Below, in pieces: positions 4,827 through 30,301 of a DNA stretch of 32,000 bases; positions within the stretch are counted from its first letter, which is position 1; each line of letters starts with the position of its first letter. The notes beneath the pieces are model-generated. The model searched no databases, was not told where the DNA came from, and saw nothing but the letters and a program-made list of their open reading frames with translations. The stretch is from Chlamydiota bacterium. GTDB taxonomy: Bacteria > Auribacterota > JACPWU01. The stretch covers positions 1 through 32,000 of the forward strand of contig JACPWU010000004.1 in assembly GCA_016196885.1 (NCBI GenBank), in the 5' to 3' direction. A program made the position numbers and the translations under genes.

Positions 4827-4960
4827 CATATGCACTTGATTCCCCTTTGTAGTCGCCCGATTCATCGGGCAAACCCATGCAAGGGGCACAGCCCCATGAA
4901 TGGGGCGACTACAACTTCTTGCCATGGCGCTTGCTATCTAAGGGGAATCAAGTGCATATG
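4827..4960. repeat. Nested inverted-repeat element (REPIN-like)
   Basis: Perfect 20-bp arms catatgcacttgattcccct (4827-4846) and aggggaatcaagtgcatatg (4941-4960). The inner inverted pair 4849-4870 / 4891-4912 has members that are each a 6-bp hairpin. Confidence 0.8.
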
Positions 4961-6822: not shown

Positions 6823-8637
6823 ATGAACTCTTATCGTCCTGAAGAAAAACTTCTGATTGCTTGTACGCGCTTAGCCCGCATTTCTCATCACATTTCTGCT
6901 GCAAGCGCCGATTCCGCCTCGTCTCTCCGTGCAGACTTGGTCGGCCACGCTCAACATACTGTAAAGTATGCCTCGCATGGCCTCGGTCGTCTTCCTCGCA
7001 TCCAAGGCGGACTCAGGCGTTCCTCGCCGACGAAATTTGATGAGAAATGCGGGCTAGGCATCTTCCCGGGTCGGACCCAAGAGATCCAGACATTGCTTCA
7101 TGGTCAAATAAATTGGAATTATTTTCTCCAAATCATATTTCGACATCGACTTTCGAGCCTTGTTTATAGCGTTCTTAAAAAGTTTTTCGTTCAGGATGTG
7201 CCCGCGCCCTTTCTTGCGGAACTCTACGAGTCTTTTCAAATAGAATCCCGCAATACCCTTTTGAAGGTTCGAGAGCTCATCCCTCTCTTAAATTTATTTG
7301 AGGGACGAGGGATCCCGGCCATTCCTTACAAAGGGCCTATTTTGGCCATGGCACTTTATGGGGATATTTCACTGCGTGAATATCTGGATTTGGATATTTT
7401 AATTCGTCGAGAGGATGTCATGAAGGCCAGAGGCATTTTGACGTCTCAAGGTTACGAGCCCCGTTTTTCTCTCTCGGTCTGGCAACAGGCGTTCTTGCTT
7501 GAATATGATTGTGAGCAGTCTTTTTCAAAAGAAGGCGTTCGTGTGGATCTTCATTGGGGAACAGATCTTAAGCACCTTTCCTTCTCTCGTTTTAGCGACC
7601 AGAACTTGTGGGAGAATCTGGATGAGATAAATTTTGGAGGAAGAACCCTTCGTACTTTTTCGCCCGAAAATTTGCTTCTCATCCTTTGTTTTCATGGAGC
7701 CAAGCATGGATGGAGTTGCTTGAATTGGATTTGCGACATGGCGTGCCTCATTTGTAAACATTCTCAGATAGATTGGCAAGGGGCGTTCAGGAAGGCCAGA
7801 GAGTTGAACGGGGAGAGAATGCTTTTACTCGGGCTTTGCCTGGCTCGAGATCTCTATACAGTGGAATTACCAGATGAATTGATTCAGAGAATCGATCAAG
7901 ATCTACAGGTGTTGTCCCTGGCCAGAAGAATCAAGAAAAGGCTTTTCCAAAAACGCGATGCCTGGACAAGATTTTGGAATGATGTGATTTATCTCCGGGC
8001 CATGGAGGGACTGGGCAATCGGTTTCATCATGGTTTGAGGTATGTGATGCCCACCCCCGCCGAATGGCTCGCCATCCCACTTCCACAAATTCTTTATCCG
8101 CTTTATTATTTCTTGAGGCCCATGCGCCTTCTGGTAAAATATGTTTGTCGTTTGTTTCGAAAATCTCCAAAGTTAGATTTGTCCCTGTTTGTGCCAGCAC
8201 CTCTTTGGGTGGTGGAGAAGATGTTGGAGCTTGCCCAGGTGAAGAGCGATGATGTTGTCTATGATTTGGGCTGCGGGGATGGCCGGATGGTTGTTATGGC
8301 GGCTCAACGGTGGGGGGCTCGGGGGATAGGTGTAGATGTTGATCCTCAGCGTATCAGAGAAGCAAAGGATTACGCCCAGCGAGAAGGGGTAGAACATCTT
8401 GTCAAATTTTTGAGGCAAGATGCAAAGAAAACGCAAGTGTCTACTGCCACTCTTTTGATGCTGAACTTGCCCTCCACCGCTTATCCTAAGCTTAAGCCAT
8501 TGTTGGAACGGCTTAGATCGGGGACCCGGATTGTGACGCGCATCTTTTATCTGGATCATTTGACTCCTCTCAAACAAGAGGTATTTAAAGATGATGAAAA
8601 ATTCACCCACGTCCTTTATCTTTATGAAGTACCTTAG
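6823..8637 (+). CDS. Nucleotidyltransferase (PF14907-like) fused to a class I SAM-dependent methyltransferase; carries an in-frame 185-bp repeat element
   Basis: 604 aa. The N-terminus EEKLLIACTR...INWNYFLQIIFRHRL and YLDLDILIRRED are typical of lasso-associated nucleotidyltransferases. The C-terminus has VVYDLGCGDGRM and GIGVDVD methyltransferase motifs. Confidence 0.75.
   Translation: MNSYRPEEKLLIACTRLARISHHISAASADSASSLRADLVGHAQHTVKYASHGLGRLPRIQGGLRRSSPTKFDEKCGLGIFPGRTQEIQTLLHGQINWNYFLQIIFRHRLSSLVYSVLKKFFVQDVPAPFLAELYESFQIESRNTLLKVRELIPLLNLFEGRGIPAIPYKGPILAMALYGDISLREYLDLDILIRREDVMKARGILTSQGYEPRFSLSVWQQAFLLEYDCEQSFSKEGVRVDLHWGTDLKHLSFSRFSDQNLWENLDEINFGGRTLRTFSPENLLLILCFHGAKHGWSCLNWICDMACLICKHSQIDWQGAFRKARELNGERMLLLGLCLARDLYTVELPDELIQRIDQDLQVLSLARRIKKRLFQKRDAWTRFWNDVIYLRAMEGLGNRFHHGLRYVMPTPAEWLAIPLPQILYPLYYFLRPMRLLVKYVCRLFRKSPKLDLSLFVPAPLWVVEKMLELAQVKSDDVVYDLGCGDGRMVVMAAQRWGARGIGVDVDPQRIREAKDYAQREGVEHLVKFLRQDAKKTQVSTATLLMLNLPSTAYPKLKPLLERLRSGTRIVTRIFYLDHLTPLKQEVFKDDEKFTHVLYLYEVP
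6872..7056 (+). mobile_element. MITE-like (miniature inverted-repeat transposable element) 185-bp element, copy 1
   Basis: Perfect 19-bp TIRs tagcccgcatttctcatca / tgatgagaaatgcgggcta, with a central hairpin catact-gtaa-agtatg. A near-identical second copy lies at 14485-14669. TA occurs at both ends. Confidence 0.7.
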
Positions 8638-8694: not shown

Positions 8695-9510
8695 TTGGAA
8701 ATTCCAGAATTTTCCCTGGCCTCATTTCTTCCGGAATCAGCGGATGCAGAGATCTTCTGTGGCAAGGTCCCTGATTTGAAGCCTCATTCTAAACAACTCG
8801 TTCTCGATATTAAGGAGGTCGCTCGTTTTTTAATCACGGAGGGCAGAAAAATTATTTATGAGCCTTGTAGAAATTCTGATCAAGACACCCTTCGTTTGTT
8901 TTTACTCGGCTCTTGCATGGGGGCTCTCATGCAGCAGCGAGGTCATGTCGTGCTTCATGGGAATGCGATTTCTAGGGATGGGAAAACGTGTCAAGTGTTT
9001 GTGGGAGATCGAGGGGCAGGGAAATCAACCCTGGCGGCTTGGTACTACCAACAAGGTGCTTATGTCCTGGCCGATGACGTGTGTGCGATTGGTTTTGATC
9101 GAAATGGAAAGCCTTATGTGATTCCAAGTTTTCCACAGATAAAGTTATGGCAGAAAGGGGCAGAGCTTCTTGAAATCAACACTTCTTATCTTCGTCGCGT
9201 ACGCCCTGGGGATGATAAATTCGGACTTCCCATTCACTCTCAATATTGTGACCATCCCTTGCCCTTGACAGAAGTGATAGAAATTAAGAGCCGATCCTTC
9301 ACGCGTATCCCCCTCACTGGCACAGAAAAAATTAAAATATTGATCCAGCATAGCTATCGCTACCATTTTCTGCGTGCGATGGTATTGGAATACACTTATT
9401 CAAGAAGTTTAGCTCGTTTAGCACAGCAAGTGGATTTTGCAAAAATGGGCAGGGTCAACTTGGATTTTCTTAGCATTCCGGCGAAGAGGCCTTACGATGC
9501 AAAGTCTTAA
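8695..9510 (+). CDS. HPr-kinase-like serine kinase (lasso peptide kinase candidate)
   Basis: 271 aa from the first canonical start (TTG) with P-loop GDRGAGKST. Kinase-like N-terminal sequence continues upstream to 8653, so the start is uncertain. Confidence 0.75.
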   Translation: MEIPEFSLASFLPESADAEIFCGKVPDLKPHSKQLVLDIKEVARFLITEGRKIIYEPCRNSDQDTLRLFLLGSCMGALMQQRGHVVLHGNAISRDGKTCQVFVGDRGAGKSTLAAWYYQQGAYVLADDVCAIGFDRNGKPYVIPSFPQIKLWQKGAELLEINTSYLRRVRPGDDKFGLPIHSQYCDHPLPLTEVIEIKSRSFTRIPLTGTEKIKILIQHSYRYHFLRAMVLEYTYSRSLARLAQQVDFAKMGRVNLDFLSIPAKRPYDAKS

Positions 9511-10108
9511 TTTTTTTAGACACTGCGGTCTCTTTATTCAGGAGAATTTTTTGGATGTGCAAACCTGTGCTAAAATACAAGATGAAATGAGATCTGCTGT
9601 TGGGAAAGACGGACAGATCTACTCTCAAAGAGAACAAACTTTTGTCGTGGATCATGAGATCAGAAAAGTGAAATCATTTCAGGTTTCACAAGCGACAGAA
9701 GGGTATGTCAAAGATCGCCTTCTTAAAATTCGGCCAACCCTGGAGAATTATTTTCAGGTTCAACTGACGGGGCATCGCAGACCTGTATTTCTTTTTTACG
9801 AGAAGGGGGACTTTTATAGAGCGCATTCTGATGTGGGTGGTTTGGATTCAAAGGTTCCGCATATGGCCTCTCGCAAAATCTCCATAGTGATATTTCTGAA
9901 TGCCGAGTCGTCTCTCCCAAGTTCTGAAACCTATTGCGGGGGTGCATTGACCTTTTTTGGAATTCTGAATAATTCCAAGTGGAAGCCGTATGGATTTCCA
10001 CTCAAAGGAGAGAAAGGATTGTTGGTTGCTTTTAGGTCAGAGGAAATACACGAGGTTTTGCCTGTCACGTCAGGAGTGCGCTCGACCCTTGCGGTGTGGT
10101 TTAATTGA
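9497..10108 (+). CDS. 2OG-Fe(II) oxygenase, prolyl-4-hydroxylase-like
   Basis: ATG at 9497 with SD aagagg at 9484-9489. Shows HxD (AHSDV), a distal His (EIHEV) and Arg (RSTLAVW). Overlaps the kinase 3' end by 14 nt. Confidence 0.8.
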   Translation: MQSLNFFRHCGLFIQENFLDVQTCAKIQDEMRSAVGKDGQIYSQREQTFVVDHEIRKVKSFQVSQATEGYVKDRLLKIRPTLENYFQVQLTGHRRPVFLFYEKGDFYRAHSDVGGLDSKVPHMASRKISIVIFLNAESSLPSSETYCGGALTFFGILNNSKWKPYGFPLKGEKGLLVAFRSEEIHEVLPVTSGVRSTLAVWFN

Positions 10109-10124
10109 GAATTGGTTTTTACCA

Positions 10125-10310
10125 TCAAGAATTTGCATCGTTTGGGTAAACACCCCCGTCCACTGGGAGGCTCATCGTTCCACTCCCTGTGGAGTGGAGT
10201 TCAATTTTTTCAAGCGTAGGGGGCACCCATGGCTTTTTTTGAAGCACAGTCCCGATAGAGGTGTCTTTTCCTCCGTCCAGTTTCTGAGAGGGGAGGTGAG
10301 AGCTTTTCAT
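10125..10310 (-). CDS. Lasso peptide precursor candidate (61 aa)
   Basis: Internal ATG of the 81-aa track ORF with an aaggaa SD-like motif upstream. The leader ends KKPWVPPTLEKIELHSTG, and the proposed core is SGTMSLPVDGGVYPNDANS. Lies 19 nt downstream of B2. Confidence 0.65.
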   Translation of the reverse strand: MKSSHLPSQKLDGGKDTSIGTVLQKKPWVPPTLEKIELHSTGSGTMSLPVDGGVYPNDANS

Positions 10311-10329
10311 AGCATAGGTTCCTTTTCTT

Positions 10330-10794
10330 TTAAATTTTATTTTGATGGGAATACATTCCCACAATGACATAATTCAAATGCGGCTGAGCACCTACAACGG
10401 GAATGTTCTTATAGCATACCCAGGCATGGGCATCGTATTTTTTATGTGAGGAATCTGATTTTTTTAAACCAAGATACACAGTGCCAGATAACCTTCTTCG
10501 AGCCAGCATCCATTGGGCTGCCATGGCTTGATCCAGACATTTGCTATGCCAAGGCAGGTTACAACGCACGATATCAATACCCTTCTGAATAAGGCGAAAT
10601 GTATTCGGATCGGAGGTTGTGTCTTCTTTACGCAAGGGAGGATCTATCCTCTTAGAGCCAAGATATTTTAAAAGGATTCGGGAAGGAACAAATTGTATCA
10701 AGAGCTTGGCCAAAAAGAGATGGAAAAACGCTTCTCGACACAAGGAGCGTAACTCTGGGGACAACCGTCGATAAGTTTTAAATTTAGCTCGCAT
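10330..10794 (-). CDS. Lasso peptide leader peptidase B2 (transglutaminase-like Cys protease)
   Basis: 154 aa with SKCLDQAMAAQWMLARRR and YDAHAWV motifs (Cys/His of the catalytic triad). Overlaps the B1 gene by 11 nt. Confidence 0.85.
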   Translation of the reverse strand: MRAKFKTYRRLSPELRSLCREAFFHLFLAKLLIQFVPSRILLKYLGSKRIDPPLRKEDTTSDPNTFRLIQKGIDIVRCNLPWHSKCLDQAMAAQWMLARRRLSGTVYLGLKKSDSSHKKYDAHAWVCYKNIPVVGAQPHLNYVIVGMYSHQNKI

Positions 10795-11083
10795 GACGGG
10801 TGACCTTTAACAGATGATGTGCATTTAACATATTTAAAAAGGTTCCTGTCTCCTGCTTACACTGCTCAGGACCTATTGTATAGCACTGCGTCAATTGGCT
10901 GAGGAGATCTTGAAGGGATATGGGCTTTTCCAAAAGCTCCCAGATCTTCGTTCCTACAGGGTTCAAACCAAAATAACAACCTGAGGCTTCATCCAACATC
11001 ACGGTCTCATCATCAATTTTGGTCGTGAATAGATCGTCCCTGTGAACCAGTCTATCGCTCAGATCAAAGAGAGTGTTTCCCAT
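10784..11083 (-). CDS. PqqD-family RiPP recognition element (lasso B1)
   Basis: About 99 aa from ATG 11083 (SD aagagg), with a GTG alternative at 11107. Contains the YFGLNPVGTKIWELL PqqD-like core. Confidence 0.8.
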   Translation of the reverse strand: MGNTLFDLSDRLVHRDDLFTTKIDDETVMLDEASGCYFGLNPVGTKIWELLEKPISLQDLLSQLTQCYTIGPEQCKQETGTFLNMLNAHHLLKVTRHAS

Positions 11084-11272
11084 GATGGATTCGCCTCTTT
11101 CCTGCACTGTTTGGAATCAATGGATCAATAGGGTTGGTCACCTTTCACTTGATTCAGACCTCATTATGCCTCAACATGGGACTGTCGTCAATATTCATTT
11201 AGCATCCGCATGGGGGACTGGACAATGATGATGAAGGCCCGGTATATTTTGGTTCAATAAGAGAGGTCCAGG

Positions 11273-12607
11273 GTGAAGGTTCTTGAATTTCATGGCATAG
11301 ATCATTTAGAAACAGATTCCATCAGCAAGGCGAATCTTTTTCCGATCATTTCTCAACTAGATATTCTGAGACAAAAGGGGCATCGTTTAATCCACAAGGC
11401 GGGTTTCATCCTGGGTCAAGATTTTGTCTGTGTCAAGAGGGGATCTAAACTTGAGATAAAAAATATTTCAGGGTTGAAAGTCTGTCGTAAAGCCCATTTG
11501 CTAGAAGCCTTTCGCGCCTTCATAAAGGCCGATCGAGTGGAGCCTGGTTTTCAGGCAACCCCTGACGAGTTTCTTCTATATCTGGCTCAAAAATCCTGGC
11601 CTTTAAGGGCCTCTTTATCTCTTGTACAGGATGAGCTTTGTGGACTGTGGAAGATTGCGCTTTTGGAACGGAGCCGCATTCGAGACGCTTGTGAATATCA
11701 ATACACTTTACCGGAGTGGTTGAGGGATATGGTGATTCTTTTGCCGCCAGAACAGTTTGAAGGGAGATGGGATTCCCATCATCCGAATGTCCTTCGCAGT
11801 CGTTCTTCTATCCAGATAGGACGTTTAGGGATTCAAAAACAAAAGGTGATGGTGATGGAAACATGGATGGATTTAATTCACACCGTTGGAATTTCATCTT
11901 CCGTTTTATCTTTTCAAAATCAGGGGGATGCCCCTCCCCTTTTTCATTATCAAGGCCAGGAGGTCATGCGTCAGGCCATCTCACAATCCTTGGGTTCACC
12001 GTTAGCGGTACGTCGTTCAACAGCATCTCTCAATGTTGGTTATTGGCAAGCTCGAGAAGAGAAACCTCGTTCTTATTTTGACCCTGAGCTTAGAGAACAT
12101 TTGCGCAAAGAAGTGGATTCTCTCCTTCCGACTCAAGGCACTCTTCTTGATATAGCAAGTGGTTCTGCTCCAGTATGCTCAAGGGAAAATCGTGTAGTGA
12201 AAGGCGTTGGATTGGTTGAAAAATCTATGCGTGCCAATAAAATTTTATCTGAGTTCAAAGTTCATGACTTTAATCAAGATCCGAATATTCCTTATCGTGA
12301 AAGATTTGATGCGGCAGTGATCTCTTTTGCTGTGATGTACTTTACCTATCCTATTGAACTCTTGTGTTCTATTCGTCAGCATCTTAAAGGAGGTGGGAGG
12401 TTGGTGATGATTTTCTCAGAACTTTTTTTCGATGCCTCCGTGTCCGTTAATGCTTGGAATTTCCCTAGGGTTTACGGTTTTAGAAATCGCTGCGAGGTCA
12501 TCTTAAATTACTTCGAAAGGGCAGGAGGATTTGGGAAGGTTCATCAAAGGACGGTGAACGATCACTTTTTTATATTTTTTGCAGATGCTCAACCAGAAAT
12601 GATATAA
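11273..12607 (+). CDS. Protein with a C-terminal SAM-methyltransferase-like domain and an unassigned roughly 280-aa N-terminal region
   Basis: 444 aa with a GTG start after gagagg. Shows motif I-like LLDIASGSAP plus FDAAVISFAVMYF and GGRLVMIF. The N-terminal part matches nothing I recognise. Confidence 0.6.
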   Translation: MKVLEFHGIDHLETDSISKANLFPIISQLDILRQKGHRLIHKAGFILGQDFVCVKRGSKLEIKNISGLKVCRKAHLLEAFRAFIKADRVEPGFQATPDEFLLYLAQKSWPLRASLSLVQDELCGLWKIALLERSRIRDACEYQYTLPEWLRDMVILLPPEQFEGRWDSHHPNVLRSRSSIQIGRLGIQKQKVMVMETWMDLIHTVGISSSVLSFQNQGDAPPLFHYQGQEVMRQAISQSLGSPLAVRRSTASLNVGYWQAREEKPRSYFDPELREHLRKEVDSLLPTQGTLLDIASGSAPVCSRENRVVKGVGLVEKSMRANKILSEFKVHDFNQDPNIPYRERFDAAVISFAVMYFTYPIELLCSIRQHLKGGGRLVMIFSELFFDASVSVNAWNFPRVYGFRNRCEVILNYFERAGGFGKVHQRTVNDHFFIFFADAQPEMI

Positions 12608-14415
12608 CTGAGATAACCACACAGCCCTAGACAACGCATGTAATTCAAGCGATATTCTACAGCAATATCGTGGTTCTGTTTTTCAATAAAGGGTAAGGCC
12701 TTCCACCGACTCAGGATTTTAGAATAATCATAAAAATCCCAAACCACGGGTAAATCCTTCCATTGTTCAAGTTGCATCAGACGTTTTGAATGATGGGTGT
12801 TGTATTGTAAATACCAGTCTGCTGATTGCTCGCCCCGATAGGGATTGTGGCGGATGGCTTGAGGCACAATATCATCCAATCCTTCACGAACGAGTAATCG
12901 GCGCTCTAATTTGCCATAGCCTTTCCAATAAACCCATTTGGGAATGTTATAACAGAATTTTACAATTTCTAAATCACGCGTTGGGTCTAGCTCATGAATG
13001 CCATACCACAATGCCATCGGGGTCATGTAGCTTAACCGTGGCGTGCTTCCACGTCCTAAAAGCATCCATACATGTTCATTGAATCCAGCAGCGATTTCTT
13101 GACGCATGATCTGACGCGCCATCTTTGATTTTTTAAAAACAGGATGACATTGTTTTAAATAATCACCATATGCCGTGTAGGGCCTCAGCCAATTCTTCAA
13201 GGTCGAAAGGTTAGAACGAATGTTTCGCAAACCCTCGAAACCTCCCTTCCAAGATAGACTTGCATTTCCACCTCCCGCAGATAATAAGATGCGCCCTTCG
13301 TGGGTGAGGGTCTCATCGTATGAAGCCAGAATCCAATCAAAATGGGTCACGTTACGAACGGGCTGGTCAATGTAAGGATAGAATGTTTTTAAGAGTTCAA
13401 AAATATCTGTTTCCGGAGATGCTTGATAAGCCTTGTGTTGAATATTAGGATAAGCCTTAAGTACTTCCTTAACCAAATGCATTTCGTGATAATACCAGCC
13501 GGGATGGAAACTCGGGCCCTCCAGTCCGAGTGGAATTTCTGTAAAACCATGAAGGACTTGATTGCGTTGGGCAAGAATTTTAGCGGCCATCGATGCTACT
13601 GAACTGGAGTCGAGGCCTCCACTGATATGGGCATGAACAGGAAATGAAGTTCTTAAACAGTTGCTCACGGCCTCTTCAAACAATGAGGAAAAATCCCTGT
13701 AATAATCTTCTCTTCTCTGATGGCGAATTCTGGATCGATTGCGGGTCAATTCCCAGTAGGAGCCTAAATGTATTTGATGGTTCTTTAAGTAGAGGTCACT
13801 TGCAGGAGGAAGTTTCTCGACCTCTCGATAGCTGGTTTGAGTCAGAGGAGCCGAATCCAAAGCGAAATGTGCGAATAGATTTTCATTGATGGAGCAAGAA
13901 TCACATAAGATTCGAAAGGGACTGAAGTAATTGGCAAAGATCAAATAATGGTTTTTCTGATAAGCATAGAAACAAGGTTGATTCCCCAGCGGATCGGTCG
14001 CGATCCATAAAGATTGATGAGAGGGATCCCATATGGAAAATGAAAAATGACCTTGTAAATGATGAACGCAATCTTTATCCCATTTCTCGTAGGCAGCTAG
14101 AACGAAGGCGCAGTCAGACATGGTTTTTGATTCCGCTAAGGAAAGGCCCAGGGCTTCAAGAAGGGTATTGCGATTTGTTAAGTAGATATGGCCAACGATG
14201 AGGCAACTTGATTGACGAGACCTGTAAGGCATTAACCCTTGTGAGCATTCAGGGGTGACAAAACGTTGCGTACAAACCAGGCCCACATTTTTTTCTATGA
14301 AAACGGCTTTGTGATCTGGCTTCCATTTTGGGCTTCTAAAGGCAGTTTGAATCAGCTTGTCACGATCGATAGGCTTTTCATCTAATCGAATCATTCCACA
14401 AAATGCATTTATCAT
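12589..14415 (-). CDS. Lasso peptide cyclase C (asparagine synthetase B-like)
   Basis: 608 aa with a GATase-like N-terminal domain and PP-loop SGGLDSSSVA. Confidence 0.85.
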   Translation of the reverse strand: MINAFCGMIRLDEKPIDRDKLIQTAFRSPKWKPDHKAVFIEKNVGLVCTQRFVTPECSQGLMPYRSRQSSCLIVGHIYLTNRNTLLEALGLSLAESKTMSDCAFVLAAYEKWDKDCVHHLQGHFSFSIWDPSHQSLWIATDPLGNQPCFYAYQKNHYLIFANYFSPFRILCDSCSINENLFAHFALDSAPLTQTSYREVEKLPPASDLYLKNHQIHLGSYWELTRNRSRIRHQRREDYYRDFSSLFEEAVSNCLRTSFPVHAHISGGLDSSSVASMAAKILAQRNQVLHGFTEIPLGLEGPSFHPGWYYHEMHLVKEVLKAYPNIQHKAYQASPETDIFELLKTFYPYIDQPVRNVTHFDWILASYDETLTHEGRILLSAGGGNASLSWKGGFEGLRNIRSNLSTLKNWLRPYTAYGDYLKQCHPVFKKSKMARQIMRQEIAAGFNEHVWMLLGRGSTPRLSYMTPMALWYGIHELDPTRDLEIVKFCYNIPKWVYWKGYGKLERRLLVREGLDDIVPQAIRHNPYRGEQSADWYLQYNTHHSKRLMQLEQWKDLPVVWDFYDYSKILSRWKALPFIEKQNHDIAVEYRLNYMRCLGLCGYLSYIISG

Positions 14416-14484
14416 AAGAGATGCCGATGGAGAAAAAATGAAAGAAATTTACAGGATCGAAGTATAACATCACAGCCGTTCTCC

Positions 14485-14669
14485 TAGAGCGCATTTCTCA
14501 TCACATTTCTGCTGCTCTTCTCCGATTCCGCCTCGTCTCTCCGTGCAGACTCGGTCGGCCACGCTCAACATACTGTAAAGTATGCCTCGCATGGCACGGA
14601 GCGTCTTCCTCGCATCCAAAGCGGACTCAGGCGTTCCTCGCGACGAAATCTGATGAGAAATGCGAGCTA
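14485..14669 (+). mobile_element. MITE-like 185-bp element, copy 2
   Basis: Same length and orientation as 6872-7056, differing only in three short patches and a few point changes. TIRs tagagcgcatttctcatca / tgatgagaaatgcgagcta. Confidence 0.7.
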
Positions 14670-14696
14670 GAGGGGGTAGAAGTTCCGGGTCTGTAC

Positions 14697-14750
14697 CTCC
14701 CCCAACCCCTCCTCAACGAATAGCCCCTTTGGGGTACAAAGGAGGGGAGA
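14697..14750. repeat. C-tract/G-tract nested hairpin element
   Basis: cccctcct (14706-14713) pairs with aggagggg (14740-14747). An inner hairpin cccc-ttt-gggg lies at 14724-14734. Confidence 0.55.
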
Positions 14751-14804
14751 CTGGACTTTCATCACTCACGATGATTCTCAAAAATCATGTTTGATTAATT
14801 GAAG

Positions 14805-15197
14805 TTAAAGCTTTGTTCCAGAAAAAGACTTGGTGACCGTAACCCCATCCAAAGTGGTTTTCTGGGTTCCGGCAAAGGTCTGCCCACTCGCATCAAAGGT
14901 GAAACTCATGGAAAGGCTGAATGTTTCTCCCTCTACCGTGACGGTTTGAGCCGGGACTGTCACAGTGCTTCCTGAAACGGTTCCCGTCGTTGTAAGGGCA
15001 AGAGTTTTATCGGTGATCACCATTTGACTTCCGCTCTGACTTAAGCTCCAGAGATGGGTTTCTGAAACGCCTGCCTCTGTAAAAGTCACGTTATAATTGC
15101 CTGAAAAGTCTGCTGCGGGGCCTTCTGTATCATTGTCGCAACCCGTGATAAGGAGAGCAAAAAGGGTCATGGCTGCCCCTATTTTTGTGATTCGCAT
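14805..15197 (-). CDS. Small Thr/Ser-rich lipoprotein, function unknown
   Basis: Lipobox LLITGC follows a hydrophobic signal. ATG at 15197 has an upstream aaagga SD; the track ORF extends to a TTG at 15206. Confidence 0.6.
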   Translation of the reverse strand: MRITKIGAAMTLFALLITGCDNDTEGPAADFSGNYNVTFTEAGVSETHLWSLSQSGSQMVITDKTLALTTTGTVSGSTVTVPAQTVTVEGETFSLSMSFTFDASGQTFAGTQKTTLDGVTVTKSFSGTKL

Positions 15198-15443
15198 GTT
15201 GCTCAAATCCTTTCCCTCTTTCCCTTTTAATTTGGGAGAGCTACTCTATAATGAACAAGGAAAGAGGGTCAAGTTCATTGTGTTTCTTTGTCCGCGATCA
15301 ATTTGCGAATGATTTCTGATGCCTTTAAATGTCCTTTCTGGTTCCAGTGCCCGTCATTTTTGAAATGATACTGCAATTGTAAAGGTCAGAGTAGGCGGCG
15401 AGCCCTTTTCTGGCGGGCTAAAAGTTTACGAATATGAATCCCT

Positions 15444-17261
15444 TCAAATGCGAGGCGTTCCTTCTAATGCTTCTTTACGCGATTGCAGTTGATAAAGCTT
15501 AGCATAAATTCCTTTTTTGGAAAGCAGTGTGGAGTGTGTTCCCATTTCGACAAGTTCTCCATGATGAAGAACCAGGATGCGACTCACGCTTTTTAAGGTA
15601 GCCAGGCGATGAGCGATAATGAACACCGTGCGGTTTTGAAAAGCCTCTTTCGAAATCCGTTCAATCCATTTTTCTGTCAAGGAATCCATGTGAGCGGTGG
15701 CTTCATCCAAAATGAGAATGGAGGGATTTTGAACGAGCGTTCGAATGAAGGCAATCATTTGACGCTCACCACTGGACAGATTCGCCCCCTTTTCAAAGAT
15801 TTCCTTTTTCAAGAAAAGGGGGCCTGACTCAAAGGGAGCCCTTGCAAAATCGGGCAGGGCCTGAAAGATTTCTCGTCCTTTTTCATCCCAAAGAAAAATA
15901 TTTTCTTCCACAGTACCTGAGAAAAGAAAAGGTTCTTGCTGAATGTAACCAATCTTTTGTCGGAGCATGCGTTTATCGGAAGTTTCAGAAATGTTTTTTC
16001 CATCGATGAGAATTTCTCCTTGCTCCAGGTCATAAAATTGCATGAGAAGATGAACAAGGGTCGTTTTCCCTGCACCTGTGTACCCAACGATTCCGATTTT
16101 CTCTCCCGCCTCGATGCAAAAATTCAGATTCACCAAGACCCAAAGAGACTCTTTTTCTTGTGAATAACGAAAAGAGACATTTTGAAATTCAATGGATCCT
16201 TGTAGGGAAAGTTTTTCTATTTGAGTTTCTTGCGGACGAATTTGTTTTTCGAGCGGCCGATCCAGAAATTCAAAGATACGTTCGCAGGAGGTCATGGCCG
16301 TGAGAAAGAGATTGTATTTTTCCGTGATGTCTCGAATCGGTGAATAAAGAGAATGGAGGTAAGCCATGAATGAGACCAGCATTCCGAGTGAAATGGAATT
16401 TTTTAAAGAGAGGAAACCTCCGTACCAAATTAAAAGCAACATGGAAAGACTGCTTAAGAAAGTAATGGTGGGCTGAAAATAGGCGAAGGATTCAAGGGTC
16501 TTGATTTGGGTTCGTGTGTAATCTTTAGAAGTGCGGTCGAAAAGATCATGAAATGTTTTTTGACGGTTGAAAATTTGAATGAGACTCATGCCTGAAATAT
16601 TTTCGGCGAGCGTTGCATTCAGTTGAGAAAGGGCCTGTCGGGAATCTCGAGCCGTTTCTCGAATCCTTCGGCCAAAAAATCTTGAGAAAAAGGCCATGAT
16701 GGGAAAAACACTTACGCAAATGAGGCCCAGGGAGGGATGAAGAACCATGAGCCAAACGATGATTCCCGCAACCACACAAATATTTCCAAGCGTGACCGCC
16801 AGGCCGCTCGTGAAGAGGTCTTGGAGGCTTGAAGTGTCATTCACCAAGCGGGTGACCAGTCTCCCAATGGGATTTTGGTTAAATTCATGAAGCGGATAGA
16901 ATTGATATTGTTTCAAGAGATCCTGTCTTAGGTCATGAATCACCTCTTGACCCAATTTCGTGAAGCTCAAGTTTTGAAAATAGGTGGCGAGGGCATTGAG
17001 GGCATCAAGGGTCAAAAGGATGAATCCAAAAGGTAAGAGGAGCGCCGCTTTTTTGGGAAGGAGGGCAAGGTCCACAGCTTTTCCCAAAAGCCAGGGAATG
17101 GAAAGAGAGGCCCCCGTGGTAAAAAAAACCAATGAGAGGCTGACGATAAAAAGTTTTCGATATTTTGTGATATAAGGCCAAAGCCTTTTTGTGAAAAGTT
17201 CGAAGACTTTAAGACGGAGCCTATTTTCTGGACCAGAGTCGTCAGGATCTTGCCAGTTCAT
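15444..17261 (-). CDS. ABC exporter, fused permease/ATPase (type I exporter half-transporter)
   Basis: 605 aa with a 6-TM N-terminal half, Walker A GYTGAGKTT, signature LSSGERQ and Walker B ILILDEA. Confidence 0.9.
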   Translation of the reverse strand: MNWQDPDDSGPENRLRLKVFELFTKRLWPYITKYRKLFIVSLSLVFFTTGASLSIPWLLGKAVDLALLPKKAALLLPFGFILLTLDALNALATYFQNLSFTKLGQEVIHDLRQDLLKQYQFYPLHEFNQNPIGRLVTRLVNDTSSLQDLFTSGLAVTLGNICVVAGIIVWLMVLHPSLGLICVSVFPIMAFFSRFFGRRIRETARDSRQALSQLNATLAENISGMSLIQIFNRQKTFHDLFDRTSKDYTRTQIKTLESFAYFQPTITFLSSLSMLLLIWYGGFLSLKNSISLGMLVSFMAYLHSLYSPIRDITEKYNLFLTAMTSCERIFEFLDRPLEKQIRPQETQIEKLSLQGSIEFQNVSFRYSQEKESLWVLVNLNFCIEAGEKIGIVGYTGAGKTTLVHLLMQFYDLEQGEILIDGKNISETSDKRMLRQKIGYIQQEPFLFSGTVEENIFLWDEKGREIFQALPDFARAPFESGPLFLKKEIFEKGANLSSGERQMIAFIRTLVQNPSILILDEATAHMDSLTEKWIERISKEAFQNRTVFIIAHRLATLKSVSRILVLHHGELVEMGTHSTLLSKKGIYAKLYQLQSRKEALEGTPRI

Positions 17262-19026
17262 CTTCTATCCTTTGCAGTTCAAGAAGTTCTCGATAAAGTC
17301 CGGGCGTCTTCGCCAAATTTAGAGGCATGCCTGTTTGAATCAGCACCCCTTCTTTAAACACCAAAATTTGGTCGAAGTCCCAGAGTTTTGAAAGGCGATG
17401 GGTGATAAGAATTAAGGTTTGGTTTCGAGATAATTTTTCATGAGAGAGGTGGTGTAAGATTTCTGATTCTGTATGAGAGTCTACACTGGAGAGCGCGTCA
17501 TCTAAAATCAAAAGAGGGGCATCTACGGCCAGGGCCCGGGCCAAGGTCACCCGGGCTCTTTCACCTCCCGAAAGCGTAAGCCCTCGTTCACCCATTTTGA
17601 GGTCCAAATTCCATCGTCCCGCTTCTTTGTCCAACCCGGAACGTTTCAAAAGTTCAAAAAGCCAAACATCCCCTTTCATTTCAGGAAAGGGCCCCCCCAT
17701 TAAAATATTCCATCTCAAGGTTTCTCTGAATAGAAAAACATCTTGGGGGACAAAAGCAATTTTCTTTCTTCGTTCTTCCAGAGGAAGTTTCGAAAAATCG
17801 CTGCCTTCCCAGAAAATCATGTGGGGAGGTGTTTCATGAAGGCCCGCCAAAAGGCGAATCAACGTACTTTTGCCGGACCCGATGGTTCCAACGATGGCGG
17901 TGCGACTTCCTTTCTGAATTTGAAAGTTGATGTTTTGAAGTACAGGGCGGGATGAACCAAGATAGGTGAAAGTCAAATGACGTACTTCTAAAAAGGGAGC
18001 ATTTATCTGAGAAGGGATTGAGAATGCGTTACCCTCAGAAGTCTTATTTTCTTCTTTCTCTTGCAACACTTGGCAAATTCTCTCCAAAGAAGTTTTTCCG
18101 CGTTGATAATAGGTGACACTGAGTCCAAAGGCAGTCATGGGCCAGACGAGTTGATCGAGATAACGGGTGAAGGCCGCAAAAGTTCCGAGGCTGATGGAGC
18201 CCATGATCACGTCTTTACCGGCAAAAATCAAAAGAGAGACCAGGCCCAGTGAAACGGCCAATGTGAAAAGAGGGTCGAAAGCGGCCTGGGCGCGGGCGAG
18301 CTTTAAATTGAGACGGACGAATTCTTTTCCGATTTTTGAGAAGCGATTCAATTGTGTCCATTCTCGTGTGAAGGCCTTGATGATGCGAATCCCTTCTAAA
18401 TTTTCTTGAGAGAAGGCACAGAGTTTCGAAAATTGATTTTGAACTTTTTCAAAACGTTCGTGAATCAACTTTTCGATCCGGGTGATGATGAAAGGAACCA
18501 TGAGCATGGGGGCTAGGGAGAGGAAGGCCAATTTATAGGATAAGATAAACAGGGTGGGTGGAATGCTCATGAGAAAGAAGGTGGCATCCGCCAAGACCAG
18601 CAATCCTGGGCCCAAGGCAAAGCGGACCGCTTCGGTGTCATTGGTGGCCAAAGACATCAAATCTCCGATCGTGTTCCGATTGTAAAAAGAGGGGGGTAGC
18701 TTTTGAAGTTTAGAAAAATAATCGTCCCGGATTTTTTCCGCTACTTTAAAAGAGCCTCTCATCAGAAACATACGCCAAAAATATCGGCAAATGCTTTGGC
18801 CGATAGCGATGGTGATATAGGCCACCCCGAGCCAAAGGAAGGGAGAGAAATGTTTCTCTCCTTTTAAGGCAAGTGAGGCCCGATCAATAAATTCTTTTAA
18901 TACAAGAGGAGGGAGGATTTGTAGAAAATCCACAATAAAGAGGGTGAGAATGCCAAAGGCAAATTCTCGCTTATAGGGTTTAGCATAGTGATAAAGAGTT
19001 TTAAGTGTTTGTGAAAAAGTTATCAT
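17242..19026 (-). CDS. ABC exporter, fused permease/ATPase; probable heterodimer partner
   Basis: Start taken at ATG 19026 (MITFSQTLKTLYHYAKPYK). Walker A GTIGSGKST, signature LSGGERAR and Walker B LLILDDA. 20-nt overlap with the downstream ABC gene. Confidence 0.85.
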   Translation of the reverse strand: MITFSQTLKTLYHYAKPYKREFAFGILTLFIVDFLQILPPLVLKEFIDRASLALKGEKHFSPFLWLGVAYITIAIGQSICRYFWRMFLMRGSFKVAEKIRDDYFSKLQKLPPSFYNRNTIGDLMSLATNDTEAVRFALGPGLLVLADATFFLMSIPPTLFILSYKLAFLSLAPMLMVPFIITRIEKLIHERFEKVQNQFSKLCAFSQENLEGIRIIKAFTREWTQLNRFSKIGKEFVRLNLKLARAQAAFDPLFTLAVSLGLVSLLIFAGKDVIMGSISLGTFAAFTRYLDQLVWPMTAFGLSVTYYQRGKTSLERICQVLQEKEENKTSEGNAFSIPSQINAPFLEVRHLTFTYLGSSRPVLQNINFQIQKGSRTAIVGTIGSGKSTLIRLLAGLHETPPHMIFWEGSDFSKLPLEERRKKIAFVPQDVFLFRETLRWNILMGGPFPEMKGDVWLFELLKRSGLDKEAGRWNLDLKMGERGLTLSGGERARVTLARALAVDAPLLILDDALSSVDSHTESEILHHLSHEKLSRNQTLILITHRLSKLWDFDQILVFKEGVLIQTGMPLNLAKTPGLYRELLELQRIEDELARS

Positions 19027-19142
19027 GATTTCTAACTCCCCCAACCAGACTGTCCGAAAATTTCCCTCCCCCTTGCGACCGAGCCGGGTGCCGCAAAGCG
19101 GCCGGCGAGGAAGTGGTCGGAGCCCGTCAGGGCGCAAACCAT

Positions 19143-19327
19143 GGGGAGGGTTAGGGAGGGGGTGGATTTCTAAAATCAAATATCAAAAATCAAAAATCAA
19201 AATGACAATGTAAAATTTAAAATGTTTCTGGATTCTAAGCATATATAAAATTTTGCATTTTGGTATTTACATTTTGATTTTTGATATATTTTCCACCCTC
19301 CCCTAACCCCTCCCATCTAGGGAGGGG
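19143..19327. repeat. Large imperfect palindrome with G4-type G-tracts and AT-rich heptamer arrays
   Basis: The left arm is ggggagggttagggaggggg followed by (AAAATCA-type) x4. The right arm is TTTTGAT x2 followed by ccaccctcccctaacccctccc. The terminal hairpin is cccctccc-atcta-gggagggg. Confidence 0.75.
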
Positions 19328-20286: not shown

Positions 20287-20955
20287 ATGTTGAATTGGTG
20301 GCTTCCAGAAGGTATTTCAACCTACAGTGGCAAGGTGGATGGTATTTTTTACATCATCTTGGCCATCACGGGTCTCATGTTCTTTTTGGTAGAAGGGGCC
20401 ATTCTTTTCTTTTGCCTTCGCTATCGTCATACCCAGCACGCGAAAGCCACTTTTGTAGAGGGGAATACCAAGCTGGAAGTGATTTGGACATTGATTCCAG
20501 CTGCAATTCTCATTTTCCTGATGTTTAAAAGTCAAGGGGTGTGGAGCGAGATGAAATCTCACATGCCCGCGAATCCGGATCTTCACATCGAGGTGACGGC
20601 TCAACAATTTGCCTGGAATATTCATTATCCGGACTCCGAAGTGACCACCTTGAATCAATTGCATATCCCTGTCGGGAAAAAAGTTTTAGTGCAAGTGACC
20701 TCAAAGGATGTCATTCACAGTTTTTTTATTCCTCAATTTCGCCTGAAGCAAGATGCGGTTCCGGGTTCTAAAATCAATGTCTGGTTCGAAGCCACTCAAG
20801 TGGGCCATTACGAGCTTGTGTGCGCGGAGTTTTGCGGTCTTGCGCATTATCGGATGAGGGGCTATTTGAAAATTGAAACACCTGAGGAATTTCAGGCTTG
20901 GCTCGACCAGTCTAAGAAAGAAGCCGAGAAGAAGGGGGACGAGGATGAGTGGTAA
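20287..20955 (+). CDS. coxB: Cytochrome c oxidase subunit II (no fused cytochrome c domain)
   Basis: 222 aa with two N-terminal TM helices. CuA site: HSFFIP ... CAEFCGLAHYRM. Confidence 0.9.
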   Translation: MLNWWLPEGISTYSGKVDGIFYIILAITGLMFFLVEGAILFFCLRYRHTQHAKATFVEGNTKLEVIWTLIPAAILIFLMFKSQGVWSEMKSHMPANPDLHIEVTAQQFAWNIHYPDSEVTTLNQLHIPVGKKVLVQVTSKDVIHSFFIPQFRLKQDAVPGSKINVWFEATQVGHYELVCAEFCGLAHYRMRGYLKIETPEEFQAWLDQSKKEAEKKGDEDEW

Positions 20956-20960
20956 GGACA

Positions 20961-21023
20961 GTCGTGAGTTGTGAGTCGTGAGGGGTGAGTTTCTTAAAAA
21001 CAGTTATGAGTCGTCGGTCGTGA
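20961..21023. repeat. Two direct blocks of GTNGTGA-type heptamers
   Basis: GTCGTGA GTTGTGA GTCGTGA GGGGTGA at 20961-20988, and GTTATGA GTCGTCG GTCGTGA at 21003-21023. Lies in the coxB-coxA spacer. Confidence 0.8.
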
Positions 21024-21039
21024 GTTTTAGAGGAATAAA

Positions 21040-22665
21040 ATGAAATCGTTCATGCACAAATATGTCTTTTCCACTGATCATAAAATGATCGGTTTGCAAT
21101 TTCTTTTTACCGCCTTTCTTTTCATGCTGTTTGGAGGCCTTTTGGCCATGGCCATCCGATGGCAATTGGCTTGGCCTGGGACAAAATTGCCTGTTCTGGG
21201 GGTGATCATGCCTGAAACCTACAATGTTATTTTTACCATGCACGGCACCTTTATGATTTTCTTTGTGGTCATTGCCATCATGGTGGGTGCCTTTGCGAAT
21301 TTCACGGTCCCTCTTTTAATTGGTGCGCATGACATGGCTTTCCCAAAAATCAACATGGCCTCTTATTGGCTTTTCTTCATCTCTTGTGTGATTATGTTGG
21401 CCAGTTTTTTTGCTCCAGGAGGCGCTGCGGCGACAGGTTGGACGGCTTATGCCCCTGTGAGTGTGAAGGCTCCGATGGGACAGTCCTTATGGTTGATCAG
21501 CCTGATTGTTCTGGGCGTTTCATCCATTTTAGGTTCGTTAAATTATTTGACCACGATTGTGAATTTACGTGCACCGGGCATGCATTTTTTTAGAATGCCC
21601 ATGACGGTTTGGGCCATTTTCATCACGGCGATTCTGGTTCTTCTCGCAACGCCTGTTTTAACAGCGGCTTTGGCCATGCTTCTTTTGGACAGAGTCTTGG
21701 ACACTACCTTTTTCTTGGCCGGAACTGGACAACCCGTTCTTTGGCAACATGTGTTTTGGTTTTATTCTCACCCGGCTGTTTATATTATGATTTTGCCGGC
21801 CATGGGAATTGCTTCTGATGTTCTCTCTGTTTTCTCACGCAAACCTCTTTTTGGATATCATGCCATGGTTTATGCGCTGAGTGCGATTGCAGGATTGGGC
21901 TTTATTGTCTGGGCACATCACATGTTCGCAACGGGGTTGAATCCAACTTTGGGAACTACCTTCATGGTGGCGACCATGTTTATTGCAGTTCCCACGGGCG
22001 TGAAGATTTTTAACTGGTTGGGGACGCTTTGGGGAGGTTCCATCCATTTTTCATCTGCTATGCTGAATGCGATTGCTTTTGTGTCCATGTTTGTCATTGG
22101 CGGTTTGAGCGGGGTTTTTTTGGCCGCTGCTTCTCTCGATATTTATTTGCATGATACTTATTTTGTGGTCGCGCACATCCATTATGTTCTTTTTGGCGGC
22201 AGTCTTTTTGGTATTTTTGCGGGGATTTATTATTGGTATCCCAAAATGTTTGGCCGCATGATGAATGAAAAATTAGGCAAGATCCATTTCTGGCTCACGT
22301 TTGTTTTTTACAATCTAACCTTTTTCCCCATGCATATCATCGGGATTCATGGGATGCCGCGGCGATTCTACGATTACAAACAATATGAATTTTTAAGAGG
22401 CTTGGAACCCTTGCAGCTTCTGATCTCCATCAGTGCCTTTGCCCTTTTTATTTGTCAGCTTCCGTTTGTGTATAATTTCTTTGTGAATCTTTTTGTTGGG
22501 AAAAAAGCGCCCAACAATCCTTGGCAGGCCAATACGCTTGAGTGGACGATTCCCTCGCCCGCGCCTCATTTGAATTACGCTAAAGTCCCCATCGTATATC
22601 GCTGGCCTTATGAATACAGCTTGCCCCATGCCAAAGAGGATTGGCTGGCGCAGGATCAACCGTGA
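21040..22665 (+). CDS. ctaD: Cytochrome c oxidase subunit I, A2-type
   Basis: 541 aa. FWFYSHPAVYIMILP (a YS motif in place of the GHPEVY glutamate) marks the A2 subfamily. Also HHMF and HDTYFVVAHIHYV. Confidence 0.95.
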   Translation: MKSFMHKYVFSTDHKMIGLQFLFTAFLFMLFGGLLAMAIRWQLAWPGTKLPVLGVIMPETYNVIFTMHGTFMIFFVVIAIMVGAFANFTVPLLIGAHDMAFPKINMASYWLFFISCVIMLASFFAPGGAAATGWTAYAPVSVKAPMGQSLWLISLIVLGVSSILGSLNYLTTIVNLRAPGMHFFRMPMTVWAIFITAILVLLATPVLTAALAMLLLDRVLDTTFFLAGTGQPVLWQHVFWFYSHPAVYIMILPAMGIASDVLSVFSRKPLFGYHAMVYALSAIAGLGFIVWAHHMFATGLNPTLGTTFMVATMFIAVPTGVKIFNWLGTLWGGSIHFSSAMLNAIAFVSMFVIGGLSGVFLAAASLDIYLHDTYFVVAHIHYVLFGGSLFGIFAGIYYWYPKMFGRMMNEKLGKIHFWLTFVFYNLTFFPMHIIGIHGMPRRFYDYKQYEFLRGLEPLQLLISISAFALFICQLPFVYNFFVNLFVGKKAPNNPWQANTLEWTIPSPAPHLNYAKVPIVYRWPYEYSLPHAKEDWLAQDQP

Positions 22666-22677
22666 AAATACTATCAA

Positions 22678-22751
22678 CAGTCCACGGTCCATCGTCCATA
22701 GAGATAAATGATTCCTTTAAAACTGTGGACCATGGACTGTGGACCATGGAC
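22678..22751. repeat. Inverted heptamer arrays (NNGTCCA x3 facing NNTGGAC x4)
   Basis: CAGTCCA CGGTCCA TCGTCCA at 22678-22698, facing TGTGGAC CATGGAC TGTGGAC CATGGAC at 22724-22751. Confidence 0.85.
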
Positions 22752-22767
22752 TGGTTGTAGGTTTTGA

Positions 22768-24714: not shown

Positions 24715-24722
24715 GAGATACT

Positions 24723-25322
24723 ATGAGTCATGCGGCAACAGCGAGTGATGTAAAGGGTTTGAGCCATCCCCTGGGGGTCAACAATGCGAAATTGTGCATG
24801 TGGCTTTTTTTGTGTTCAGAGGTGATGTTTTTCGCAGGATTGATCGGATCTTACATCGTGCTTCGGCTGGGAAGTTTGACTTGGCCGACCCCGGGCGAGA
24901 TTCTCAACATCCCTCTGACAGGGGTCAATACGTTTATCTTGATTTGCAGCAGTGTCACCATGGTAAAGGCCTTCGCCTGGGCGCACATGGGAAATCAAAC
25001 CAAGATCAAAAGGCACCTTTTTCTAACCTTTCTTTTTGGCGTGATCTTTCTTTCGATCCAGGCCATCGAATATTACAAGTTGTATCATCATCATGGGTTA
25101 CATCCTTCGGGCAATCTTTATGGGACCTGTTTTTATATCCTTACAGGCTTTCATGGCTGCCACGTTTTGGGAGGGGTGATTGCAGTCTTTGTTCTTTGGA
25201 TCCGGTCTTTGTTGGGACATTTTACAAAGGGGCGTCATGCCCCGGTTGAATTGGTGGGGCTTTATTGGCATTTTGTGGATTTGGTGTGGATTATTTTATT
25301 TACGATTGTTTATTTGATATAA
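24723..25322 (+). CDS. coxC: Cytochrome c oxidase subunit III
   Basis: 199 aa, multi-TM, with TGFHGCHVLGGV and GLYWHFVDLVWI motifs. Confidence 0.9.
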   Translation: MSHAATASDVKGLSHPLGVNNAKLCMWLFLCSEVMFFAGLIGSYIVLRLGSLTWPTPGEILNIPLTGVNTFILICSSVTMVKAFAWAHMGNQTKIKRHLFLTFLFGVIFLSIQAIEYYKLYHHHGLHPSGNLYGTCFYILTGFHGCHVLGGVIAVFVLWIRSLLGHFTKGRHAPVELVGLYWHFVDLVWIILFTIVYLI

Positions 25323-25338
25323 TCTCTTCGGGAGATTC

Positions 25339-25626
25339 ATGATGGACCAGGAAAAAGTTGAAAATTTCACGCATCCCAATTATGTTGCAGTTTGGATATG
25401 GCTTTTGGTTTTAACGGTGTTGGAGGTCTGTGCCCTTTATTTGCCTTGCGCCAAGGTTGTAAAAATTTCCGCATTGGTATTTTTGGCCATTACGAAGGCT
25501 CTTCTTGTGGCCATGTATTTTATGCATCTTAAATTTGAGCGCTTGGTTCTGATCGCAGTGATTGTTTATCCTGTGGTTTTATCGTTGGTGTTGACCCTTC
25601 TCACGCGTCTAAGTCTTAAGATCTAA
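25339..25626 (+). CDS. Cytochrome c oxidase subunit IV (prokaryotic type)
   Basis: 95 aa with 3 TM segments, YVAVWIWLLVLT and MHLKFE motifs, and operon position after coxC. Confidence 0.7.
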   Translation: MMDQEKVENFTHPNYVAVWIWLLVLTVLEVCALYLPCAKVVKISALVFLAITKALLVAMYFMHLKFERLVLIAVIVYPVVLSLVLTLLTRLSLKI

Positions 25627-25645
25627 CGCTATTTCGGGCAATCCC

Positions 25646-26287: not shown

Positions 26288-26700
26288 GTTTCATCCCTCT
26301 TTCCATTTTCCCAAAGTTAAATGCTTCTTTAAATGCGACTTCGGCGTGTTTTCTCCTGGCGGGATATATTCTGATCCGCAAAAAGAAAATTTCGGCCCAT
26401 CGTTTTTGCATGCTGGGCGCTTTAATCGTTTCTTTCGTCTTCCTCATTTGTTATCTTTATTACCATGCGCATCATGGCGTGACCCGGTTTCAAGGTCAGG
26501 GATGGCTTCGACCTTGTTATTTTTCGATTCTCATTTCGCATACGGTTTTGGCGGTGCTTGTTTTCCCTATGGCGCTTGTGACGGTCTATCGGGCCTTTAG
26601 GGAGGATTGGAGTCGCCATAAGCGGTTGGCCCGCTGGACGTTCCCGATATGGCTTTATGTGTCTATCACAGGTGTGATCGTTTATGCGATGCTTTATTAA
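26284..26700 (+). CDS. DUF420 (CtaM-like) membrane protein
   Basis: 138 aa with 4 TM segments, ATGA overlap with the SCO1 gene and the usual cox-operon context. Confidence 0.7.
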   Translation: MSFIPLSIFPKLNASLNATSACFLLAGYILIRKKKISAHRFCMLGALIVSFVFLICYLYYHAHHGVTRFQGQGWLRPCYFSILISHTVLAVLVFPMALVTVYRAFREDWSRHKRLARWTFPIWLYVSITGVIVYAMLY

Positions 26701-29111: not shown

Positions 29112-29114
29112 AGG

Positions 29115-29184
29115 ATAGCGTACAGCGTATAGCGTTCAGCGTACAGAAAAAAATCCCCTCGTTATAAACGGACCGCTGTACGCT
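29115..29184. repeat. Inverted heptamer arrays of the NNAGCGT family
   Basis: ATAGCGT ACAGCGT ATAGCGT TCAGCGT ACAG at 29115-29146, facing GACCGCT GTACGCT at 29171-29184. Confidence 0.85.
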
Positions 29185-30297: not shown

Positions 30298-30301
30298 TAG
30301 A

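Follow-up and report, generated by a model that had tools for sequence, protein, structure and literature searches.

The window described here is a stretch of 32,000 nucleotides from a Chlamydiota metagenome-assembled genome (MAG; NCBI assembly GCA_016196885.1, contig JACPWU010000004.1, positions 1 to 32,000 of the forward strand). It contains a nucleotidyltransferase-methyltransferase gene that carries a transposable element of the miniature inverted-repeat type (MITE), inserted in frame. The open reading frame (ORF) has 604 codons including the insert, and Pfam identifies its product as a fusion of an NTP_transf_5 domain (PF14907) and an S-adenosylmethionine-dependent methyltransferase. The protein is identical to NCBI MBI1883853.1, from a MAG named 'Chlamydiae bacterium', and the identical sequence is deposited under two NCBI accessions, on two contigs. 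The element lies within 6871-7057 and consists of a 179-bp body, a non-coding transposon relic, with 16-nt terminal inverted repeats (CCCGCATTTCTCATCA) and the flanks TTAG/CTAG. A second copy is located further downstream, between two ORFs. The features of the gene and of both copies are as follows.

6823-8637, + strand: host gene
6871-6874, + strand: left target-site duplication TTAG; TTA encodes Leu17 of the host protein
6875-7053, + strand: MITE body of 179 bp, a long imperfect palindrome
6875-6890, + strand: left terminal inverted repeat CCCGCATTTCTCATCA, which also bounds elements of the IS1380 family
6945-6960, + strand: central hairpin CATACT GTAA AGTATG, in a core conserved over the element family across phyla
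7038-7053, + strand: right terminal inverted repeat TGATGAGAAATGCGGG; TGATGA within it blocks one of three reading phases
7054-7057, + strand: right target-site duplication CTAG; CTA encodes Leu78
14484-14670, + strand: second copy, with a body of 179 bp and CTAG/CTAG flanks, intergenic, between ORFs 14805-15206 (- strand, 133 aa) and 12589-14415 (- strand)

The extra residues are present in the window protein alone. We aligned it with 14 orthologues, one of them a 65%-identical protein from a sister MAG. All 14 are colinear with the host protein except for a 61-residue insert, positioned between LLIACTR and the linker preceding EIQTLLHGQINWNYF. The added peptide, LARISHHIS...FDEKCGL, joins the host sequence at …LIACTRLARISHH… and …DEKCGLGIFPGR…. 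The net gain to the gene is exactly 183 nt, or 61 codons, whichever reading of the target-site duplication is used. Excising these 183 nt gives MNSYRPEEKLLIACTRLGIFPGRTQEIQTLLHGQINWNYF / MNSYRPEEKLLIACTRLGIFPGRTQEIQ..., which is gap-free and colinear with the 65%-identical orthologue (P0002). The GC content is 0.57 for the element, compared to 0.46 for the remainder of the ORF and 0.45 for the window. Since none of the 14 orthologues contains the residues, excision restores colinearity and the GC content differs, the segment is an insertion and not a native part of the protein. The ORF reads through the element without a stop, and the other five of the six element frames contain stops. A preliminary description of this DNA, made from the sequence alone, had proposed such an in-frame insertion, stop-free in the host frame, adding 61 codons and splitting the segments after LLIACTR; the clean empty site in the orthologues bears this out. 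It had also noted that no ATG follows soon after the element. The first in-frame ATG past the insert is indeed codon 176, but TTG and GTG codons occur from codon 91.

The ends of the element can be placed by their symmetry. The 19-mer TAGCCCGCATTTCTCATCA at 6872-6890 is perfectly inverted at 7038-7056, giving repeats of 19 nt including TAG, or 16 nt without the duplication. With up to three mismatches it has four matches in the window, compared to 0.02 expected, and two of these bound the second copy, which is ~90% identical to the intragenic one over the whole length. The element RNA folds as a single long hairpin (-84.9 kcal/mol, z = -7.3). Its arms keep pairing across subfamilies, with compensatory changes in 22 of the 53 pairs, and pair 88/102 of the central hairpin occurs as A-U (8 sequences) or as G-C (6). 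The sole open frame of the element is a 62-residue read-through with no family match in Pfam, and there is no transposase gene. With its terminal inverted repeats, target-site duplication, small size, dispersed copies and empty sites in relatives, the element is a MITE. The second copy is placed directly upstream of the Asn-synthase-like gene and could affect operon expression; the 133-aa ORF on its other side has no family match.

A strong secondary structure and an in-frame position would also be compatible with a segment that is removed before the mature protein is formed, as an intron or an intein. The chance of this is negligible. An Rfam search of the window found no family that matches the element, its only match being a group II intron domain at 49-137, and Pfam detects neither a Hint nor an intein domain in the host protein. 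At 61 residues the insert is too short for an intein, and the inverted repeats at its ends, the duplicated target site and the intergenic copies are features of a transposon.

The family of the element extends over several genomes. Scanning one genome per species with two repeat cores, we obtained 32 loci with 33 copies. About 29 of these are in one Acidobacteriota MAG, the rest in a Bryobacterales MAG, another acidobacterial MAG and an unclassified MAG. The related subfamily of the Acidobacteriota MAG CBDEGM01 (within loci L001-L032) has at least 27 copies, whose gain is 179 nt in one size class and 192-194 nt in the other; a 13-nt internal insertion accounts for the larger class. No Acidobacteriota copy lies within a long ORF and all appear intergenic; for most of them the gain is 179 nt and so not divisible by three. 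Members of the window-type subfamily are 58-72% identical to the genome-scan copies (Acidobacteriota and unclassified MAGs). In chlamydial loci we found ten distinct full copies, and 15 kb of contig JACOUD010000014 hold three copies. The element is repeated beyond its two window copies. The chlamydial copies come from two NCBI 'Chlamydiae' MAGs (GCA_016178005.1 and GCA_016178055.1) and from Logan assemblies.

The sites of insertion vary between related genomes. Sister MAG JACOUC01 carries copies at different sites. In sister MAG GCA_016178055.1, the orthologues of the window gene and of an LplA-like gene are insert-free, and the element is found in miaA and in another gene; the insert-bearing LplA-like gene is known from Logan contigs only. 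Insert-free orthologues combined with other insertions in the sister MAG indicate insertion-site polymorphism, as expected of a mobile element. Viral contigs scanned with the repeat gave no match. A BLAST search of a plasmid collection with the element had as its sole match an end-like sequence, without annotation, on a Pseudoalteromonas piscicida replicon (NZ_CP074588.1). This is a solo TGATGAGAAATGTAGGCTAG (locus L033, 3010-3030), nearly identical to the right end of the element; it occurs at three places in the replicon, with no partner repeat within 3 kb.

The GC-rich composition of the element and the abundance of its relatives in Acidobacteriota MAGs could raise the suspicion of an assembly artefact, in which a repeat of a co-assembled GC-rich organism, for example an acidobacterium, was spliced into a chlamydial contig. 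We regard this as highly improbable. The junctions are exact, a target-site duplication is present and the frame is preserved. In addition, the window-type subfamily is distinct from the genome-scan copies and recurs in several contigs, in both NCBI MAGs and in independent Logan assemblies, and the host protein itself stands under two accessions.

The insertion in the window gene is not a single case. In-frame copies were collected by a word-indexed search with the element translations and then by an exhaustive phmmer search with the 62-residue peptide. The peptide is carried by 15 library proteins, with at least 10 distinct hosts among them; besides the window protein, about ten belong to related Chlamydiae MAGs. 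The hosts include the following.

MiaA tRNA isopentenyltransferase, its Pfam domain split in two by the insert
a periplasmic binding protein, also split
an Rce1-like protease
a 694-aa glycosyltransferase-like protein
a HesB-like protein
a CBM9-like protein
an LplA-like ligase
two proteins of ~6000 aa

The orthologues of the LplA-like ligase are 220-224 aa long and do not have the 60 residues; in the interrupted protein, the invariant C-terminal KYxSxEW motif (Y/S/W) is kept downstream of the insert. For the seven intragenic copies whose DNA was examined, the arrangement is constant: all have the same orientation, insert in phase 0, add 180 or 183 nt and possess a single stop-free frame. One intergenic copy of the chlamydial subfamily adds 181 nt. 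Insertion in phase 0 means that the target YTA is read as a Leu codon. The other two phases are closed: reading in phase 1 runs into the TAR of the duplication, and in phase 2 into the TGATGA of the right repeat. Of the four admissible combinations of phase and orientation, an element like the intragenic copy of the window is readable in one. A single insertion thus has a fair chance of leaving the frame intact, and readable insertions would be enriched by purifying selection. In-frame insertion is a recurrent habit of this element family, not a one-off.

The target-site duplication was scored on 35 copies, the 33 from other genomes and the two of the window, by comparing the 4 bases outside the CCY...RGG ends. 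The flanking 4-mers are identical on both sides in 24 copies, with the consensus YTAR. The outer positions covary: the first is C/C in 24 of the 35 copies and T/T in 6, the fourth G/G in 19 and A/A in 12. In 15 of the 24 perfect cases the 4-mers are non-palindromic, either CTAA/CTAA or TTAG/TTAG. A duplication of TA alone cannot yield such pairs, and the duplication is therefore the 4-bp YTAR. The body starts with CC and ends with GG in nearly all copies. In the window, the intergenic copy is flanked by CTAG/CTAG and the intragenic copy by TTAG/CTAG, which match at three of four positions. The preliminary description had reported TA on both sides and a body of 181 bp at 6874-7054. TA is present at both ends and the net gain of 183 nt is correct, but the duplication is longer than TA and the body is better placed at 6875-7053, with 179 bp.

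Complementary changes have altered both flanking 4-mers of an intergenic chlamydial copy at locus L034 (2896-3079; CTGG...CCAG), which suggests either that the two arms evolve in concert or that the flank bases act as part of the hairpin.

The repeats also lead to a candidate transposase. A metagenome scan with TARCCYGCATTTCTCATCA returned at least 120 loci bearing the terminal inverted repeat, and among the matches listed there are several with repeat pairs 1.7-2.4 kb apart. The following full-length elements encode a transposase.

L080, 1127-2844: flanks CTAG/CTAG, IS1380-family transposase
L047, 1728-3459: IS1380-family transposase
L116, 181-2532: IS1380-family transposase, also matching PF13701
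L144, 1567-4014: flanks ATAG/ATAG, IS1380-family transposase

The four transposases match NF033539 at 347-393 bits (cut-off 180). All four elements are bounded by CCYGCATTTCTCA(T/C)CA, and the repeats of the MITE family are CCYGCATTTCTCATCA. In seven further loci fetched by the repeat alone, tblastn finds IS1380-like genes adjoining it. Among the matches listed, the repeat-bounded transposase genes all belong to the IS1380 family and none to IS630. Members of the IS1380 family (ISfinder) have direct repeats of 4-5 bp and ends beginning with CC. Because of its repeats, its duplication and its partner transposase, the element is, as judged from sequence, an IS1380-family MITE.

This assignment replaces the IS630/Tc1-type transposase that the preliminary description had suggested, in which a Stowaway-like MITE would be mobilised with a TA duplication. 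TA does flank both ends of both window copies, and a TA duplication at a YTAR target would fit the ten chlamydial copies, where the bases immediately within the TA are complementary in every case and the outer ones often differ. The suggestion is nevertheless largely refuted, and its chance is slim: a TA-only duplication cannot produce the 15 CTAA/CTAA or TTAG/TTAG copies or the ATAG/ATAG flanks of full-length L144, and every full-length element tested with these repeats encodes a transposase of the IS1380 family.

Upstream of the transposase gene of L116, and divergent from it, is an ORF of the DUF6788 family (312-680, - strand). Genes next to unpaired repeat matches in L001 (Acidobacteriota) and L007 (unclassified MAG) were considered as transposases and rejected, being ordinary genes instead.

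To assess the effect on the host protein, we predicted its structure with AlphaFold from the 15-sequence alignment. The mean predicted local distance difference test score (pLDDT) is 80; insert residues 24-80 are below 50 and the flanking helices at 81-91. The model has low confidence for the insert, which forms a loop between helices 1 and 2, and the host fold is kept. Outside the insert, all family-invariant residues are retained, and both domains are present over the other 543 codons. In the seven in-frame copies, the variable sites are spread evenly over the codon positions (23/19/23), which makes the peptide look like a passenger that is tolerated, rather than a domain under selection. 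On sequence and model together, the evidence leans towards a tolerated insertion in a still-functional gene, although this is not proven. The choice between tolerance and inactivation, which the preliminary description had left undecided, is thereby shifted to the former.

Overall, an IS1380-type MITE that was inserted in frame, is tolerated and recurs in the chlamydial lineage is a very probable explanation of the locus. An IS1380-type DDE transposase, supplied in trans, would have inserted the non-autonomous element at a YTAR site by a 4-bp staggered cut, within codons 17-18 of a functional nucleotidyltransferase-methyltransferase gene. Through the 183-nt gain, the in-phase YTA Leu codon and the stop-free orientation, the gene has gained 61 codons with its frame kept. 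Between helices 1 and 2 of the N-terminus, the extra peptide would form a poorly ordered loop that is tolerated, most likely leaving the gene functional. The in-frame copies in about ten other genes of the chlamydial lineage would have arisen by the same process, in the manner of Rickettsia palindromic elements.

Several observations weigh against this explanation. In the ~120 kb of chlamydial sequence examined we found neither a transposase nor an IS1380 element of full length, and full-length insertion sequences with matching repeats come from other metagenomes only, so that mobilisation in this genome is something we infer. The full-length insertion sequences have their terminal repeats in common with the MITE, but their interior is unrelated; an origin of the MITE by internal deletion of these elements was rejected, as the terminal repeats alone are shared. 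All seven chlamydial intragenic copies have imperfect 4-mers, in which the outer bases often differ and the inner ones are complementary. The 4-bp reading for the chlamydial subfamily therefore rests on the wider family; taken alone, the subfamily is ambiguous and would also fit a TA-only duplication. The sample of in-frame copies is biased, as a protein search detects readable copies only and not disruptive insertions. Finally, the codon-position test gave no signal of selection at the peptide level, and a hairpin of -85 kcal/mol close to the 5' end of the mRNA could impair expression.

The last two points would also suit a gene that was killed by the insertion, its ORF being intact by chance (a multiple of three, stop-free) with too little time for decay. 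As one in four combinations is readable, an intact frame would not be rare by chance, and the insert directly follows the conserved N-terminal helix. We consider a dead gene unlikely. Every family-invariant residue and both domains persist in the other 543 codons, and the divergence already present between the flanking 4-mers (TTAG/CTAG) implies that some time has gone by. Housekeeping genes (miaA, lplA-like) also carry this element in frame with conserved downstream motifs intact, and in the AlphaFold model the insert is a loop and the fold of the host is retained.

In-frame fusions by intragenic MITEs have been documented, with the Rickettsia palindromic elements as the extreme case, and similar processes may exist elsewhere (PMC10969869). 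The Rickettsia elements are short (~150-180 bp) palindromic repeats found in frame in many unrelated, often housekeeping, genes; their conserved added peptide is thought to be structurally tolerated, and their bacterial hosts belong to an intracellular lineage (PMC10969869). The chlamydial element resembles them in these respects. However, its hosts are Chlamydiota MAGs, and it has clear terminal inverted repeats, a 4-bp duplication and an autonomous partner family, IS1380; the likeness is one of working, and membership is not claimed. ERIC, Coxiella QMITE1 and Anabaena MITEs are likewise small, with terminal inverted repeats, an open frame and in-frame host fusions (PMC10969869), but by description they are other sequence families, with other or unassigned transposase partners.

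The terminal repeats of the window element are identical to those of L080, L047, L116 and L144. Unlike these insertion sequences, the element has no transposase, is about one tenth of their size and has an interior unrelated to their subterminal regions. Its ends beginning with CC and its 4-bp duplication around a TA core are shared with the IS1380 family and piggyBac. The duplication of piggyBac is TTAA and its ends are of the CCC type; its prokaryotic relative IS1380 serves as an outgroup (PMC10813416). IS1247, a listed IS1380-family member, has 5-bp repeats (PMC3281130). The consensus YTAR is also that of the 4-bp duplication of IS5 (PMC10359306), but the transposase tied to the repeats of the window element is IS1380, not IS5.

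The phenomenon is already known from Rickettsia, and the chlamydial IS1380-type element is a new example of it. A limited literature check found no paper on in-frame MITEs in Chlamydiae, which is not proof of novelty, and the repeat sequence appeared in the literature only in unrelated human and synthetic sequences. With Rickettsia as the textbook case, the environmental Chlamydiota would provide a second, independent lineage in which a palindromic mobile element is repeatedly written into proteins. As the repeats, the duplication and a candidate transposase family are recognisable, the origin and reversibility of the insertions are experimentally testable. For annotation, the 60-61-residue peptide LxRISHxIS...SDEKCGL in MAG proteins should be recognised as element-derived.

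A more far-reaching reading, which we consider doubtful, joins several of these observations. It supposes a chlamydial MITE lineage adapted to intragenic life, whose multiple-of-three gain, single stop-free frame and Leu-codon target would allow its spread within the coding sequence of a compact genome, in the form of a loop module of 60-61 residues that can be translated. Acquisition across phyla forms part of this reading because related copies abound in Acidobacteriota. The IS1380-type transposase may, in addition, excise the element seamlessly. If true, such excision, as in the eukaryotic relative piggyBac, would make protein insertions reversible.

The host gene is found in a lasso-peptide-like cluster for a ribosomally synthesized and post-translationally modified peptide (window 8695-19179). 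The cluster contains the following genes; a precursor peptide was not identified within it.

8695-9510: HprK-related kinase
9437-10108: 2-oxoglutarate-Fe(II) oxygenase
10330-10794, - strand: transglutaminase-like protease
10784-11107, - strand: PqqD
11273-12607: methyltransferase
12589-14415, - strand: Asn-synthase-like cyclase (lasso cyclase-type)
15444-19179, - strand: two ATP-binding cassette (ABC) exporters

The analysis suggests that the host gene, as an accessory gene of this cluster, is probably still intact.

Other features were noted elsewhere in the window. The group II intron match (domain V/VI; 49-137, + strand) lies at the left edge of the window with a score exactly at the Rfam gathering threshold (40 bits), and is immediately followed by an AAA_14/DUF4143 ATPase gene (136-1287). 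A complete aa3-type cytochrome c oxidase operon (COX2, COX1, a CtaA/CtaB fusion, COX3, SCO1 and DUF420) is present at 20287-26700, in a MAG labelled Chlamydiae. A second repeat family, with members of ~45 nt built from AGCGTACAGCGT-like units, is present at 29107-29153, 30294-30340 and 30352-30395. Its copies are both direct and inverted and surround genes for a bactofilin and a redoxin. Between genes at 2923-2997 and 4827-4960 there are inverted repeats of 21 nt that match perfectly (CAAGGGTCAAGGGTCAAGAAA and CATATGCACTTGATTCCCCTT); they are probably terminators or other intergenic palindromes.

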